A DNA stretch of 43,394 nt from a virus (Duplodnaviria > Heunggongvirae > Uroviricota > Caudoviricetes), in the IMG/VR virus record IMGVR_UViG_2519103024_000002; one strand, 5' to 3'. A program made the translations under genes and the position numbers. The notes under the pieces are model-generated. The model saw only the letters and a program-made list of their open reading frames with translations. It made no database searches and was not told where the DNA came from. Below, piece by piece: positions 7,285-38,434 of this stretch; the stretch's first letter is position 1; every line of letters begins with the position of its first letter.

Positions 7285-7956
7285 TCAGCGACCAATCACC
7301 ACAACCTGACCACCATCCCCTTCGTCTGCCGTGCTGATCTCCTGAGAAACCACGCGTGACCCCACGCGCATTTCACCGTACAGAACCGGCAGAACATTGC
7401 CCTGGGCAACCATGTTATCCAGTGAGGAGAAATAGGTGTTCTGTTTGCCGTTATCCGTTGTCTGTGTACGGGGAGTTCTGGCTTTCGGTGCCAGCATCTG
7501 CGCCACACCACCGAGCACCATACTGGCACCGAGAGAAAACAGGATGCCGGTCATACCACCGGCCCCAATGGCTGCCCCCCATGCTGCAAGGGTGGCTCCG
7601 GCGGTAAAGAATGATCCGGCAATGGCGGCAGCCCCCAGGACAATCTGGAATACGCCACCTGACTTGGCCCCGGCGACTCTGGGAACAATATGAATCACAG
7701 CGCCATCAGGCAGAGTCTCATGTAACTGCGCCGTTAACCCGGACGTGCTGACGTCCCGCCCGGCAATCCGTACCTGATACCAGCCGTCGCTCAGTTTCTG
7801 ACGAAACACCGGGAGCTGTGTGGCCAGTGCGCGGATGGCTTCAGCCCCCGTTTTCACACGAAGGTCGATGCGGCGGCCAAATCGTTGTAAATCCCCGTAA
7901 AGGCAGATGCGCGCCATGCCCGGTGACGCCAGAGGGAGTGTGTGCGTCGCTGCCAT
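7285..7956 (-). CDS. I: tail tip assembly protein I
   Basis: 223 aa, MAATHTLPLASPGMARICLYGDLQRFGRRIDLRV... essentially lambda gpI; overlaps the 3' end of K as in lambda. Confidence 0.9.
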   Translation of the reverse strand: MAATHTLPLASPGMARICLYGDLQRFGRRIDLRVKTGAEAIRALATQLPVFRQKLSDGWYQVRIAGRDVSTSGLTAQLHETLPDGAVIHIVPRVAGAKSGGVFQIVLGAAAIAGSFFTAGATLAAWGAAIGAGGMTGILFSLGASMVLGGVAQMLAPKARTPRTQTTDNGKQNTYFSSLDNMVAQGNVLPVLYGEMRVGSRVVSQEISTADEGDGGQVVVIGR

Positions 7957-14242: not shown

Positions 14243-14817
14243 CGCTTTATTACCATTCTCAGTTGATGCTGCAGCGCATAGCCCAGCTCTTTCGGAAGAC
14301 GCTCACGCCGTATCCGCTCAATATTCTGTTTAAACGCCGTGGTCAGCGGCACCGCCATCGGGATTTTCACCACATCAATGGGGTAACGGTTTTTCCCGGC
14401 CACACGCTGCATGACATGCCACCGGCCATTTTTCAGTTGCTGAATAAACGCGCCGGGAATACGACGGTTTCCCACCACAAGCACGCTGCCGCCACCTTTC
14501 AGGGATGAACGCTGCCCCTTTTTACGACGCCTGCGTCGGGACAGGACAACCCGCGCGTTACCCAGCCTGATTACGGGCAAATCCCCCCGGTTAACTTTGA
14601 TTCTGGCCTGCGGATTTTTGACCGTGGCCCTTTTCAGCCTGGCCCTTTCCTTTACCAGTTTCCGGCGTACCTTTGTCTCACGGGCAACCAGTGACGCCGA
14701 CTGCGATATCGCGGATGAAGCAACGCGGTTAATGGCCATTGCGGCGGCACCAGGCACTGCCGTTTTGCTGATACGGCTGAGGTTTTCAACGGCCTGCTCA
14801 AGACCTTTTATGGCCAT
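14239..14817 (-). CDS. Z: tail completion protein Z
   Basis: From internal ATG: MAIKGLEQAVENLSRISKTAVPGAAAMAINRVASSAISQSAS... lambda gpZ (192 aa). Confidence 0.9.
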   Translation of the reverse strand: MAIKGLEQAVENLSRISKTAVPGAAAMAINRVASSAISQSASLVARETKVRRKLVKERARLKRATVKNPQARIKVNRGDLPVIRLGNARVVLSRRRRRKKGQRSSLKGGGSVLVVGNRRIPGAFIQQLKNGRWHVMQRVAGKNRYPIDVVKIPMAVPLTTAFKQNIERIRRERLPKELGYALQHQLRMVIKR

Positions 14818-14828
14818 ACATCCCCCTT

Positions 14829-15182
14829 TCAGCGGCGACGGCTGGCGGCAGGTGGTTGCCCCCGGTTGAGCCAGAGATAACAACTCCCTCCGTCATCCGG
14901 AGAAACACGGTCCACCCAGAACATCTCGCCGTTAATGGTCAGCGTGTCACCACGCCGTACAGCACAAACCGTATCCGTAAGCACAAATAATGACGGGTTA
15001 CTTCCTTCAATACGGATCCCACTACTGGCAAAACCCAGCGACTCCGGATCGTCAAAAACGCCATGAACCTCGCCGCCACGCTGTGCACCGGAGGTGAACT
15101 GCGCACTGATGCCCATCACTTCAACAATCGTACTGTCCACCCCGGCAAGGGCGGCATCAAAGGCATTCTGAAAATCACGCAT
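14829..15182 (-). CDS. FII: head-tail connector protein FII
   Basis: MRDFQNAFDAALAGVDSTIVEVMGISAQFTSGAQRGGEVHGVFDDPE...VDRVSPDDGGSCYLWLNRGQPPAASRRR lambda gpFII. Confidence 0.9.
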   Translation of the reverse strand: MRDFQNAFDAALAGVDSTIVEVMGISAQFTSGAQRGGEVHGVFDDPESLGFASSGIRIEGSNPSLFVLTDTVCAVRRGDTLTINGEMFWVDRVSPDDGGSCYLWLNRGQPPAASRRR

Positions 15183-33808: not shown

Positions 33809-33919
33809 ATGCCCTCCATAGTAAACACGAATAAAAAAATACAATATGTACTTTGCGAATACAAGTAAAAATACACATTGTGCATGGATGGTTCCAGTAC
33901 AGAGCGTAATAATAAGGAC
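33809..33919. promoter_or_regulatory. OR region with divergent promoters (PR toward cro, PRM toward cI)
   Basis: 111-bp AT-rich divergent intergenic region; candidate PR on minus strand TTGTAT-17 nt-TATTTT then GGAGGG SD before cro; 11-mer ATATGTACTTT (33844-33854) is the reverse complement of an 11-mer in the PL spacer. Confidence 0.65.
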
Positions 33920-34579
33920 ATGAAAATGAAATGGTATGAACTGGCTAGATCCAGAATGAAAGAGCTCGGCATAACTCAAGAGAAGTTAGCCGAAGAGCTA
34001 GGTATGACGCAGGGTGGGATTGGACACTGGTTGCGCGGATCTCGTCATCCATCTCTTAGTGATATTGGTGTGGTGTTTAAATACCTTGGTATTGATAACA
34101 TATCATTCAACCACGACGGGACATTTTCACCTGTTGGCGAATACTCATCGGCCCCAGTTAAAAAACAATATGAGTACCCTGTTTTTTCTCATGTTCAGGC
34201 TGGGATGTTCTCTCCAGAACTCAGAACCTTTACCAAAGGCGATGCGGAGAGATTGGTAAGCACAACCAAAAAAGCCAGTGACTCTGCATTCTGGCTTGAG
34301 GTTGAAGGTAACTCAATGACCGCACCAACAGGTTCCAAACCCAGCTTTCCTGACGGGATGTTAATTCTGGTTGACCCTGAGCAAGCTGTTGAGCCCGGCG
34401 ATTTCTGCATAGCCAGACTTGGTGGTGATGAATTTACCTTCAAGAAACTGATCAGGGATAGCGGTCAGGTGTTTCTACAGCCACTAAACCCACAATACCC
34501 AATGATCCCATGCAATGAGAGTTGTTCCGTTGTGGGGAAAGTTATCGCCAGCCAATGGCCTGAAGAGACGTTTGGGTGA
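33920..34579 (+). CDS. cI: CI prophage repressor: non-lambda N-terminal HTH domain fused to lambda-type C-terminal S24 autocleavage/dimerisation domain
   Basis: [58 protein letters not shown]... then from ...[71 protein letters not shown]...QWPEETFG, which matches the lambda CI C-terminal domain as remembered. Confidence 0.9.
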
Positions 34580-34618
34580 TGAAACCACTTTTATCTACAA
34601 TTTACAGGGCGGTAAACA

Positions 34619-35176
34619 TTGGCAAAAATAGATGATTATCAGCCAAGCCAAGTAGAAGTTGATAAAGTACTTTATTGTAAAAAAATAGTTAACTTTTCTG
34701 GCGTTAAATGGAAACAGAAACCAAGTCGCTCTGATATGTGGCTACAAGCCCATATCATCCCCTTGGATGAGGATTGTATACCTATACAAGGGCTAAAGTT
34801 TGAACTGAAATGGAAACCAGATCAGGATTCAGAACCTGATGACCCGATTTCTTACCCTAAAATAAATATTATTGCTTTCTATCATAACAAGAGGGTTTTC
34901 GCGGTAGATACCTATCACTTTGACAAACACACGAATAGTTACAAGGTCGATCATCCGAAGTACCAAGATATCATTTACGGTGCTCACTACCATGTATACT
35001 ATGAAGAAGCTGGATACTATAGTGATAGAATAGCGTTTCCAATCGAAGATGACATAAACCCAGATGACCTGGTAGGGTATTGGAATTACTTCTGTAAACA
35101 TCTGAACATAACTTACTCTGGGAGAATACCTTTACCGCTTGAAGATGAGTCGGGGCAAATGGGGTTTGGAATATGA
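34619..35176 (+). CDS. hypothetical protein A of an unassigned two-gene operon in the rexA position (candidate superinfection-exclusion / anti-phage function)
   Basis: 185 aa ORF starting 39 bp after the cI stop, same strand; track start 34619 is TTG (first in-frame ATG at 34736); AT-rich; His/Tyr/Asp-rich (YHFDKH, HYHVYYEE); no TM segment or motif I can assign. Confidence 0.6.
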   Translation: MAKIDDYQPSQVEVDKVLYCKKIVNFSGVKWKQKPSRSDMWLQAHIIPLDEDCIPIQGLKFELKWKPDQDSEPDDPISYPKINIIAFYHNKRVFAVDTYHFDKHTNSYKVDHPKYQDIIYGAHYHVYYEEAGYYSDRIAFPIEDDINPDDLVGYWNYFCKHLNITYSGRIPLPLEDESGQMGFGI

Positions 35177-35925
35177 TGTGCTCAACAGTGATCTCACAAC
35201 TAGGTTTCGAATGCCATCCAATAGGCAAGACCTTGAGAATTATCAGTCCATTCACTTACTGTGATGATGGAGAGCATGTCGGTGCCTTTATCCGTGAAGT
35301 CAATGGTAGGTATTTAGTTAGTGACAGATGCGATGCCTTAATGAATATGGAGGCAAGAGGGATCTCGCTTACCAAAAAACGACTTGATGAGATACGACAA
35401 TTACTGCTTAAAGAAGGCGCAGAACTCAATGCTCGAGGAGAAATCATTGCTTGGGCAACAGAAAAGGATGTCGGTGCGATTACATCGAACATAATTAGAG
35501 CTGGTATACTCGCATCAACTTTGTCGTTAGACTGGTATCAGCCAGTTCAAGCTGAAAAGTTTGAAAGTATGGTTATTGATTATCTATATCACACAGAGCT
35601 TAGAGACGCACTTTCTCTTCGTGAAAACGTATATGGCTTGAGTGGACATCAAATTACCGTCCCTGTAACAATAAAAACCGACATACCTAAATACGTTTTT
35701 ACATCAAGCGTGAAACACGGAGGAAGCTGGAATAGTGCTTACTCATTGCTTGGGAAACTAATTGATCTTAAAGCTTCAAGTGAGGAGTATAACAACAGAT
35801 TTGTTGTTATAGACAGCGAAGCAATTGGTGATCAAATGCAACAACTCTCCTTACTCTTCCATGAATCAAGCCAAGTTCTACCATTCTCCAAAAGAGAGAC
35901 TTGGGTTAAGAGACTTGCAGCATAA
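35173..35925 (+). CDS. hypothetical protein B of the same operon (rexB position), soluble, no recognised family
   Basis: 250 aa; ATG at 35173 overlaps the stop of protein A (ATGA coupling); followed by a strong intrinsic terminator; AT-rich; no Walker A, nuclease or TM motif seen. Confidence 0.7.
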   Translation: MMCSTVISQLGFECHPIGKTLRIISPFTYCDDGEHVGAFIREVNGRYLVSDRCDALMNMEARGISLTKKRLDEIRQLLLKEGAELNARGEIIAWATEKDVGAITSNIIRAGILASTLSLDWYQPVQAEKFESMVIDYLYHTELRDALSLRENVYGLSGHQITVPVTIKTDIPKYVFTSSVKHGGSWNSAYSLLGKLIDLKASSEEYNNRFVVIDSEAIGDQMQQLSLLFHESSQVLPFSKRETWVKRLAA

Positions 35926-35930
35926 TACAA

Positions 35931-35956
35931 CCCGGCCTCAGCGCCGGGTTTTCTTT
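35931..35956 (+). terminator. intrinsic terminator closing the cI / two-gene operon
   Basis: CCCGGC-CTCAGC-GCCGGG hairpin followed by TTTTCTTT, 6 nt after the protein B stop. Confidence 0.8.
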
Positions 35957-36143
35957 GCCTCACGTTCGCCCACCTAAAAACACATAACCAATTATATTTA
36001 TTGAAAAATAAATAGATGCAACCCACTAAACCACGCAATTCTGATCTCTCCTTACATCGCCGAGGCAATACATCCACGCTAAAAAACAACACTATTAAAT
36101 ACAAAGCGTTATAAAAAACCACGCCAACTTACAACAAATTGTA

Positions 36144-36172
36144 TTGATCTTGTAAAGTACATATCGTACTAT
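36144..36172 (+). promoter_or_regulatory. candidate PL promoter with operator motif in the spacer (OL)
   Basis: TTGATC-17 nt-TACTAT; spacer contains AAAGTACATAT (36154-36164), the same 11-mer (same orientation relative to transcription) as in the PR spacer. Confidence 0.55.
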
Positions 36173-36218
36173 TTAACCGTCAGCAGGACGCTGGAAGCCA
36201 AATGGAACAGACTGGCAG

Positions 36219-36263
36219 GCTCTTTAAACAACGTCGACTCTCGACTACGTGGCTGAAAAGCCA
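36219..36263 (+). promoter_or_regulatory. nutL (boxA GCTCTTTAA plus boxB stem-loop UGGCUGAAAAGCCA)
   Basis: GGCTCTTTAAACAACGTCGACTCTCGACTACGTGGCTGAAAAGCCAG between PL and N; GAAA-type loop on a 5-bp stem; paralleled by the site after cro. Confidence 0.7.
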
Positions 36264-36361
36264 GATCACCCAACCACATAAGCTGTGGGATGCAATGCCG
36301 AAGCAACCGTCTCAGGAGGAGCTTCGAGATTGCATCGCCAAAGTTTATTCGGGAGGAATCC

Positions 36362-36634
36362 ATGTCCAGAAAAACAGAATTTAAAGGCACCGCAGCTTCT
36401 CGCCGTAGAGCTCGTCGCGCAAATCTGCAAAGTCAGGAGGCGATCAGCTCCGACAAGCTACACAGGCCAACCCCTTCACGAGTGGTCTTGCAATGCAAGC
36501 TCAAACCAGCAATGAGAGCAGAAGTGATAACTCTGACAACGTTGACCAGAAAATATGAAGGTTCAACTTGTCTTCCGAACGTAGCTCTTTACGCGGCAGG
36601 CTACCGGAAATCAAAACAACTGACGGCGAGATGA
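36362..36634 (+). CDS. N: N-type transcription antiterminator (arginine-rich RNA-binding motif); not lambda N sequence
   Basis: From ATG at 36362: MSRKTEFKGTAASRRRARRANLQSQEAISSDKLHRPTP...; Arg-rich motif near N-terminus; downstream of PL/nutL; ORF-track start 36290 is upstream. Confidence 0.75.
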   Translation: MSRKTEFKGTAASRRRARRANLQSQEAISSDKLHRPTPSRVVLQCKLKPAMRAEVITLTTLTRKYEGSTCLPNVALYAAGYRKSKQLTAR

Positions 36635-36650
36635 TAAATTCATTTGCTAA

Positions 36651-37232
36651 TTACTTGTTTTTGCCATGCTTATCCTGAGCGATAAGTTCATCCATAAGGC
36701 TGTCTGCCTTCCCGGCAAACCTAATGTAGCACTCATGTCTATAGCTTTCAGGGATAACGAAACGGTCGGTATCAGGATATCCAACAGCAGGAGGCCTTCG
36801 AACGAGGAGTCCTTTTTTGAGCAATGAAATTGATTCATGAGCGCCCTTTTCCGTTTGTAGCTGGTTATTAGCGGCTACAGCGAATGCCAAATACGCTCTT
36901 TCTCCAAGAGTTAACGAATCAAACAAATCTTGCACATATTTTTCTTCTTTAGATTTGCGCTTCTGAGCAGCGAATACCTCAATTCTTTCAGTCACAGCGT
37001 GATAAGCGGAATTAACAACGCCGTTAAGCACATAGCTAACGCAAAACAACAGGATGTAATACATCCAGTAATGAGGAAGGATTTCTGGATTATGCAGGTT
37101 TATCCATTCTTTTACGCTTACCGGCATAACAATAATCAATATGATCAGGATGATTAGCATATGAATCAACTGTTTAAGTGTCATTCCTTGCAGGAAAAAA
37201 TGCATTAGTTCCTGCCACCATGAGTTGTTCAT
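36651..37232 (-). CDS. sieB: superinfection exclusion protein B (SieB-like membrane protein)
   Basis: 193 aa MNNSWWQELMHFFLQGMTLKQLIHMLIILIILIIVMPVSVKEWINLHNPEILPHYWMYYILLFCVSYVLNG... two N-terminal TM helices; opposite strand abutting N, as lambda sieB. Confidence 0.85.
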   Translation of the reverse strand: MNNSWWQELMHFFLQGMTLKQLIHMLIILIILIIVMPVSVKEWINLHNPEILPHYWMYYILLFCVSYVLNGVVNSAYHAVTERIEVFAAQKRKSKEEKYVQDLFDSLTLGERAYLAFAVAANNQLQTEKGAHESISLLKKGLLVRRPPAVGYPDTDRFVIPESYRHECYIRFAGKADSLMDELIAQDKHGKNK

Positions 37233-38197: not shown

Positions 38198-38269
38198 GCG
38201 CGGCGTTACCGCATACCAATTACGCTTCACTCGAGGCGTTTTTCGTTATGTATAAATAAGGAGCACACC

Positions 38270-38434
38270 ATGCAATATGCCATTGCAGGGTGGCCTGTTG
38301 CTGGCTGCCCTTCCGAATCTTTACTTGAACGAATCACCCGTAAATTACGTGACGGATGGAAACGCCTTATCGACATACTTAATCAGCCAGGAGTCCCAAA
38401 AAATGGATCAAACAATTATGGCTATCCAGACTAA
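38270..38434 (+). CDS. cIII: CIII (FtsH inhibitor)
   Basis: ATG at 38270 after AAGGAGCACACC; [54 protein letters not shown] = lambda CIII (54 aa); found by manual translation. Confidence 0.9.
   Translation: MQYAIAGWPVAGCPSESLLERITRKLRDGWKRLIDILNQPGVPKNGSNNYGYPD

Follow-up and report, generated by a model that had tools for sequence, protein, structure and literature searches.

What occupies the interval between the repressor gene cI and the antiterminator gene N in the virus record IMGVR_UViG_2519103024_000002 (IMG/VR; Caudoviricetes), that is, the position at which phage lambda carries rexA and rexB? In this stretch of 43,394 nt, to which we refer as the window, the interval holds two small overlapping genes, here named A and B, and alignment with lambda establishes that A-B replaces rexAB base for base, as a cassette swap. 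We consider the chances slightly better than even that A and B together defend against superinfecting phages, as a two-protein module which is expressed in the lysogen and exchanged as cargo at the position after the repressor gene. This reading draws on (i) the exact swap with rexAB, (ii) synteny beside diverse repressors, with conserved cassette boundaries, (iii) purifying selection and the conserved weak start codon of A, (iv) matches to the candidate defence system PDC-M24 and the scores given by DefensePredictor, (v) the presence of abortive-infection cargo (RexAB, BstA) at the same site, and (vi) absence from plasmids along with carriage by viable temperate phages.

Exchange of rexAB for A-B

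The cassette and the repressor gene before it comprise the following features.

33884..34579, + strand: cI-type prophage repressor of the LexA/S24 family, 231 aa (WP_001302016.1 for the equivalent in E. coli Nissle 1917 as annotated by the Prokaryotic Genome Annotation Pipeline, PGAP; cI in phage PhiR57_1)
34556..34580, + strand: last 25 nt of a lambda-type cI (TGGCCTGAAGAGACGTTTGGGTGAT), the left cassette boundary, at which homology with lambda stops
34580..34618, + strand: spacer of 39 nt with a weak purine-rich ribosome-binding motif, AGGGCGG at 34606-34612, as read from the sequence
34619..35176, + strand: gene A, TTG start, 185 aa, predicted to be soluble and beta-rich
35173..35925, + strand: gene B, ATG start, 250 aa
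35929..35958, + strand: intrinsic terminator of the lambda tIMM type (8-bp stem with six G-C pairs, followed by a T-run), the right cassette boundary

The first-pass annotation, made from the sequence of the window without database searches, had placed the pair at the rexAB position, and its flanks indeed align to lambda at both junctions. On the left, 34169-34580 (the C-terminal half of cI and its stop) corresponds to lambda 37637-37226 with 93% DNA identity; on the right, 35929-36050 corresponds to lambda 35826-35708, from the rexB stop and terminator onward, with 91%. Between these shared flanks lambda holds 1399 bp of rexA-rexB and the window 1348 bp of A-B. At the terminator, 32 nt are 100% identical to the end of lambda rexB, and these 32 nt are all that phage records carrying rexB have in common with the cassette.

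The same boundaries recur where the surroundings differ. In Enterobacteriaceae loci the last 25 nt of lambda-type cI (TGGCCTGA[A/T]GAGACGTTTGGGTGAT) stand just 5' of A despite different repressors, and in four of these loci (L002, L006, L007 and L008, at about 7815-7930) the piece is duplicated, the first copy lying at the end of the resident repressor gene and the second ~70 nt later, directly before A. Judged by this arrangement, the 25-nt piece looks like a recombination linker or scar, a fragment of a donor cI that would travel with the cassette. After B, the hairpin CCCGGCC-N6-GCCGGG and its T-run are conserved in other genera, and the loci share nothing beyond it. The conserved boundaries hence define the exchange unit as the cI 3' end, A, B and the terminator, and most simply the cassette would be exchanged by recombination at the boundary linkers. 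It is here that a selfish nuclease cassette has to be weighed, in which B, like a free-standing homing endonuclease, would cut cassette-free sites and the cassette would spread by repair. We regard this as very improbable: the boundaries are common to rexAB, and hence look like ordinary recombination linkers of the lambdoid mosaic rather than a cleavage target, the catalytic motif of B is non-standard, and a second conserved protein, A, with an invariant site of its own would be left unexplained.

The cI-N interval has been described as a hotspot of mosaic diversity which holds the abortive-infection systems RexAB in lambda and BstA in phage BTP1, both of them expressed along with cI (Owen et al. 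2021, PMC8585504). The variability of the slot, likewise claimed in the first-pass annotation, is borne out by counts: 773 of 5426 complete E. coli genomes contain the window's segment covering cro and the N-terminal part of cI, but only 239 carry the cassette at 80% coverage or more (277 with any match). Other cargo also stands beside an identical cI protein, since an O157:H7 prophage encoding it fills the slot with two other small open reading frames (ORFs); the phi80-type prophage of DH5alpha lacks anything of similar size at this position. The repressor encoded at 33884-34579 is itself a hybrid, with a C-terminal half that is 93% identical to lambda cI at the DNA level and an N-terminal half which, together with the cro/operator region, is ~94% identical to the DH5alpha phi80-type prophage and 98.6% identical to the O157:H7 prophage.

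The ORF coordinates, the ATGA overlap at 35173-35176 (4 nt between A and B), the 39-nt gap after the cI stop and the strong terminator were all confirmed in the sequence. The cI stop ends at 34579, and a terminator scan found no terminator in the gap before A; one follows B, its hairpin (35929-35950, then the T-run) starting three bases past the B stop and folding as RNA with -16.8 kcal/mol (z = -3.8; none of 200 shuffled sequences folds equally well). A search for an internal promoter analogous to lambda PLIT returned five promoter-like matches, with 5.8 expected from shuffled sequence. Given the short gap, the lack of a terminator before A and the terminator after B, the cI promoter is presumed to be the source of the A-B transcript. 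A GGA/GGAG-like motif lies at a comparable distance 5' of A in homologous loci. The AT-richness pointed out earlier is real and modest: the first 60 nt of A contain 32% GC, A as a whole 38% and B 41%, compared with 47% in cI, 50% in N and 46% in the window.

Selection on A and B and their place behind a repressor

Are A and B genuine genes? PGAP recognises both coding sequences in E. coli Nissle 1917, with the TTG start (WP_001062368.1 and WP_000968518.1), and the depositors of phage PhiR57_1 independently annotated both genes, again with the TTG start; in PhiR57_1 and PhiR63_2 each product is labelled simply 'hypothetical protein'. Comparison with homologues from Enterobacter-type, Izhakiella, Yersinia, Providencia, Xenorhabdus, Pantoea, Thorsellia, Aeromonas and Klebsiella loci gave proportions of synonymous differences (pS) of 0.7-0.9, which are saturated, against 0.13-0.43 for non-synonymous ones (pN); where it could be computed, dN/dS is ~0.15 or lower for A and <0.1 to 0.2 for B. 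Both genes are under purifying selection, and this selection, with the conservation of the genes, excludes that they are spurious ORFs.

The start of A is itself conserved in its weakness. In 14 of 16 loci, representing nine genera, A begins with TTG (E. coli and Aeromonas) or GTG (seven further genera), and ATG is encountered only in Thorsellia and a Pseudomonas phage. The M-A-K N-terminus is conserved, with an in-frame stop one to five codons 5' of it in several loci, and the 4-nt overlap with B is kept in 15 of the 16. An alternative ATG for B at 35176, which likewise overlaps the stop of A, is used in some homologues and in the annotation of PhiR57_1. The consistent non-ATG start suggests selection for low expression, and a weak start kept across genera, combined with the 4-nt overlap, points to deliberately low, coupled translation. 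The doubt raised at first as to whether a TTG-initiated ORF is translated at all is thereby answered by the conserved M-A-K, the weak start and the overlap, as far as sequence can answer it.

A survey of genomic context, proposed along with the first-pass annotation, placed the homologues behind diverse repressors in E. coli, Aeromonas, Klebsiella and a Pseudomonas phage. Homologues with 47-84% identity occur across Enterobacterales and Aeromonas, and in every locus examined (more than 20, all of them prophage immunity regions) the order is repressor-A-B on one strand. Eight loci that carry one Enterobacteriaceae variant have six different repressors and several replication modules, and within Enterobacteriaceae overall the pair adjoins at least seven distinct repressor and replication modules; the order is also found in Aeromonas prophages and in Rac-like prophages of Klebsiella, where the repressor is short and consists of a helix-turn-helix (HTH) only. 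At 22-35% identity, the arrangement and the 4-nt overlap are kept in the D3-like Pseudomonas phage VB_PaD_phPA-G, which has a 216-aa gene annotated without function between its CI-like repressor and the A homologue, and in two high-GC IMG/VR contigs. In VB_PaD_phPA-G the A homologue is a 172-aa ORF at 14515-15033 (L026 4486-5004) where the deposited annotation is empty; it overlaps the next gene by ATGA and is a clear homologue, with an M-A-K start, the pattern D...H-x-N...H-x-H and a C-terminal GQMGF. A profile search for A found only 32 cluster representatives among 1.84 billion proteins, so that the family is small, and a pattern-based genome scan for distant relatives returned close relatives only. 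In S. aureus, an HTH gene has a DUF6978 gene as its neighbour, and a gene with DUF1828 borders a site of prophage integration (PMC13210130, PMC10821479), which hints that a pattern of HTH repressor, DUF6978 and DUF1828 may reach into Firmicutes. A fragment 82% identical to the enterobacterial protein B on a 518-bp contig of Actinomadura rugatobispora (L017) is almost certainly an assembly contamination.

So close an attachment to the repressor might alternatively mean that A-B is an accessory of the lysis-lysogeny switch, which tunes repressor stability, induction or the establishment of lysogeny of its own phage. It is true that the post-repressor position is kept down to 22-35% identity and across phage types, a linkage tighter than is usual for defence cargo. 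A factor acting on the repressor would, however, be expected to co-vary with it, whereas the repressors found beside A-B have no relationship to one another (some are S24 LexA-like proteins of varying length, others short and HTH-only), and phages with an identical cI protein do without A-B. BstA is similarly placed and yet is a defence protein, and the distant PDC-M24 relatives of the pair were defined from genes embedded in restriction-modification, BREX and similar loci, not from prophages. We thus consider a switch accessory rather unlikely.

In E. coli about 4-5% of complete genomes contain the pair, in a version whose identity is 99% or more among nearly all carriers; these include Nissle 1917, the type strain ATCC 11775, NU14, UPEC 26-1 and ExPEC XM. 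It is also carried by the viable temperate phages ev017, ev207, PhiR57_1 and PhiR63_2 (the latter two grown on ECOR13) and by one Stx1a-converting phage. Nissle 1917 keeps A-B 100% conserved even though its prophage is a defective remnant; there (L001 8749-10354) the prophage is truncated after sieB by a frameshifted IS3-like ISEc52 transposase, followed by a partial integrase beside icd. Since extra-intestinal pathogenic and commensal E. coli often carry the cassette, and genes 3' of cI are expressed in lysogens, A-B might instead be lysogenic-conversion cargo that serves host physiology (stress tolerance, colonisation or virulence) and has nothing to do with phages. Yet neither protein has a signal peptide, a membrane segment or similarity to a virulence or metabolic family, carriers of the cassette include insect-, plant- and nematode-associated genera as well as Pseudomonas phages, and both defence-prediction approaches flag the pair; a conversion role appears to us improbable. 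No plasmid-borne relatives of A-B were found.

Protein architecture and predicted function

For B, the first-pass annotation saw no assignable motif, and in this it was mistaken. The N-terminal domain (about residues 1-118) is a DUF1828 domain, recognised both by its Pfam match and by its YbjN / type-III-secretion-chaperone-like fold, and the C-terminal domain (about 128-250) is a DUF1829 domain of the PD-(D/E)xK clan with a restriction-endonuclease fold, in which the alpha-beta-beta-beta-alpha-beta core of that superfamily is found. A published HHpred table for B likewise gives DUF1828 at 25-114 (99.5%) and DUF1829 (clan PDDEXK) at 155-241 (98.8%). The class 2 matches of B include the PD-(D/E)xK nucleases Can2 nuclease (10.3), BstEII (10.1), and PspGI and NgoMIV (9.8), and further VC1899, Bax1 and I-Bth0305I. 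Residues conserved in the N-terminal domain include C3, C14, D32, G33, D51 and G89; family-wide in the C-terminal domain are S157, G158, H159, P164, W186, G194 and D198. Strand 2 of the latter opens with the invariant S157-G-H159, H159 being found where strand order, taken without superposition, places the Asp of 'PD', and the acid that closes strand 4 is apparently conserved, as judged by eye. It is thus possible that B acts as a nuclease through a remodelled site; that B is a DNA-targeting effector we nonetheless hold to be on the unlikely side.

The 185-aa protein A is rich in His, Tyr and Asp, as had been noted (Asp 10.8%, Tyr 8.6%, His 4.3%). Among 25 sequences reaching down to ~21% identity, K22, W31, R92, D97, H104, N106, H123, H125, F158, P173 and Q180 are invariant or nearly so, and the polar set R92, D97, H104, N106, H123 and H125, located on neighbouring strands, looks like a site for metal binding or catalysis. 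Conservation extends to the C-terminal tail, ...ESGQxG(F/L), even though disorder is predicted for it, and this tail would suit a docking peptide for the chaperone-like domain of B. A fold search of BFVD with A returned one uncharacterised siphovirus protein, and a search for relatives of solved structure by sequence, with single sequences and with profiles, gave no meaningful match for A or B. Three candidates were discarded. A match to the SAKe designer protein is a repeat artefact in which no stretch passes alone. An HUH endonuclease, suggested by H-Y-H with downstream tyrosines, is contradicted by the lack of conservation of these tyrosines, by a middle residue which is mostly Glu or Gln in distant homologues, and by the lack of an HUH fold; for a histidine triad (HIT) hydrolase, the motif H-x-H-x-H-x-x on a HIT fold is not found. 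As stated in the first-pass annotation, no transmembrane segment is detected in either protein (19-residue Kyte-Doolittle hydropathy; maximal means 0.45 for A and 1.19 for B), and the AlphaFold2 models of both are globular.

A nuclease-type fold in one of two small, coupled genes with a 4-nt overlap and a weak upstream start, which moreover move as a self-contained cassette, is also what one might expect of a toxin-antitoxin-like addiction module that ensures retention of the prophage or of the cassette and plays no part in phage defence. Such a module appears as unlikely to us as a switch accessory. Searches of Pfam and NCBIfam found no HTH, ribbon-helix-helix or AbrB domain and no toxin or antitoxin family, and the pair is absent from plasmids, on which addiction modules are common; besides, many toxin-antitoxin systems themselves defend, so that this explanation overlaps with the defence module that we favour.

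That defence module is predicted by two independent resources. In PADLOC, the full length of B aligns to PDC-M24B (E = 4.7e-10, residues 2-249 on 4-254 of the 256 profile positions; 1.5e-7, again over the full length, for a second PDC-M24B model), PADLOC giving no curated cut-off for PDC-M24B. A matches PDC-M24A with E = 4.8e-4 and 18 bits over residues 104-163 only, i.e., the conserved core, on the C-terminal half of the profile, and similarly weak matches are obtained for four of ten distant A homologues. Each match of A is weak by itself, but because two neighbouring proteins match the two components of a single candidate system, the pair is likely to be remotely homologous to it. The PDC systems derive from a 'guilt by embedding' approach, which takes genes lying within defence loci already known (Payne et al. 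2024, bioRxiv 10.1101/2024.01.29.577857). DefensePredictor lists exactly WP_001062368.1 and WP_000968518.1 as 'Predicted novel defense gene', with log-odds of 4.9-5.4 for A, 5.6 for B and 6.3 for the B variant WP_000968517.1, at a strict cut-off of 4; in the same study 42 of 94 predicted units (45%) were validated (DeWeirdt et al., Science 2026, PMC13092281). The defence role put forward in the first-pass annotation has thus been predicted independently, with both proteins above the strict cut-off and in addition matching PDC-M24 weakly. That the system is undescribed holds only in part: the exact proteins stand in a published prediction list and distant relatives in PADLOC. The pair, already flagged computationally in two published resources, is hence no fresh discovery.

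Several points weigh against a defence role. B does not keep the standard D...(D/E)xK motif, with K173, the Lys of strand 3, and the acidic residue two positions N-terminal to it varying in Pseudomonas-type homologues, and because of these non-standard catalytic residues nuclease activity of B is uncertain. A has no recognisable fold or family and no structural match in the PDB; DUF6978 (PF22398) scores 22 bits against it, below the cut-off of 29.6 and over residues 104-164 only (scores for two distant A homologues are similar), and the match of A to PDC-M24A is likewise weak. The very tight linkage to the repressor over deep divergence could mean a role in lysogeny control. Our literature search, the coverage of which did not extend to a 2025 study by Brenes and Laub, reportedly a screen of E. 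coli prophage cargo against temperate phages, found no experimental report of expression of A-B or of phage resistance conferred by it; 'PDC-M24' was found in no paper, and DUF1828 and DUF6978 only in incidental tables. The 145 PDC candidates are, by their authors' own statement, without experimental testing (Payne et al. 2024), DeWeirdt et al. (PMC13092281) did not have the pair among their 94 + 24 tested units, and in Nissle 1917 only a 'phage repressor' clone was tested, which did not include A-B (Bury et al. 2018).

If A-B is nevertheless a defence module, how might it work? A-B would be read through from the repressor maintenance promoter, which implies that both proteins are made only in the lysogen, at a low level and with a fixed A:B stoichiometry. 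A and B would then form a complex and act together, infection by a foreign phage would be sensed, probably through the DUF1828 domain of B with its protein- or peptide-binding fold, and an activity would be released which stops the infection. This activity would most likely come from the nuclease-fold domain of B, with DNA as its target, or else from the conserved Asp/His/Asn/His-x-His site of A, in which case B might serve as sensor and regulator. It is tempting to speculate further, though we hold this only tentatively and below even chances, that A-B represents a mechanistically new immune module, widespread behind repressors in temperate phages of Gammaproteobacteria and beyond, in which an enzyme without known structural relative (A, with its R/D/H-x-N/H-x-H site) is paired with a chaperone-like sensor fused to a remodelled restriction-endonuclease fold (B). 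The combination of the domain architecture of B with A is without characterised precedent.

The immunity region and comparison with known systems

Further features of the immunity region are listed here.

33834..33854, no strand assigned: operator-like 21-nt sequence in the divergent cro/cI promoter region, partner of 36154-36174
36154..36174, no strand assigned: operator-like sequence in the PL/OL region, partner of 33834-33854
36362..36634, + strand: N-type antiterminator gene, the right neighbour of the cassette (a coding sequence in PGAP; N in PhiR57_1)
36651..37232, - strand: superinfection-exclusion gene sieB (ORF; 'super-infection exclusion protein B' in PGAP; SieB in PhiR57_1)

The two operator-like sequences form an inverted repeat, 86% complementary, which brackets cI-A-B in the manner of OR and OL in lambda, and they fit OR and OL operators of one immunity type. 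The proximity of sieB to A-B had been remarked upon before; the gene does lie close by, on the opposite strand and beyond N. In the expected nutL region 5' of N, a 60-aa ORF at 36202-36384 (+) overlaps the start of N; it is annotated by PGAP in Nissle 1917 and is probably not a real gene. The sole family matched in an Rfam scan of the window is the lambda cIII thermoregulator RNA element, at 38257-38315 (+; 88.5 bits, gathering score 50), and no tRNA genes were found in the window.

Defence cargo downstream of cI is of a well-known kind and would be expected by a specialist. If the pair indeed defends, a function would be assigned to the DUF1828, DUF1829 and DUF6978-like families, a relative of PDC-M24 would receive its first experimental support, and there could be consequences for phage therapy, for the engineering of Nissle by means of phages and for how Stx phages spread. 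Being small (1.35 kb) and cleanly delimited, the cassette would be easy to test.

Among predicted and validated systems, PDC-M24 resembles A-B in having two components, one matched by B over its full length and the other weakly by A, although the relationship is remote; it was defined inside known defence loci, whereas A-B resides in prophage immunity regions with sieB as sole defence-type neighbour. The validated DS-6B (DS-6 / HipAD; PMC13092281) carries, as B does, a DUF1829 annotation, in its case a weak one, but its partner is a HipA-like kinase unrelated to A, and an analogy between B and DS-6B was rejected at an hhalign probability of 0.13. Effectors of the Can2/Card1 and VC1899 types have two domains, a sensor linked to a PD-(D/E)xK nuclease, but possess a CARF sensor domain where B has a YbjN / secretion-chaperone-like domain instead; moreover, no cyclic-nucleotide synthase lies near A-B, and the standard catalytic residues are not conserved in B.

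In layout, the nearest known systems are the occupants of the same slot. BstA of BTP1 is encoded directly 3' of the prophage repressor, as A-B is, in an arrangement conserved in diverse Gram-negative prophages, and it is expressed during lysogeny (Owen et al. 2021, PMC8585504); it is, however, a single protein with a DNA-based self-immunity element (aba) and has no homology to A or B. RexA-RexB of lambda resembles A-B in lying between the cI stop and tIMM on the cI strand, as a two-gene operon near N and sieB. It differs in gene layout, rexA and rexB being without the overlap seen between A and B, and also in its proteins, as RexB is an ion channel of the membrane while neither A nor B has a membrane segment and B has a nuclease-type fold; scans of A and B against Pfam, NCBIfam, PHROGs and PADLOC gave no Rex homology. 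Because the pair contains no membrane protein, a Rex-like membrane-depolarisation mechanism is excluded. The first-pass view of A-B as a functional replacement of RexAB is thus upheld for the position, and loses the support that homology to RexA or RexB or a membrane protein would have lent it. Should A-B defend its lysogen, it would be, after RexAB and BstA, the third mechanistically distinct occupant of the best-known lambdoid defence slot.

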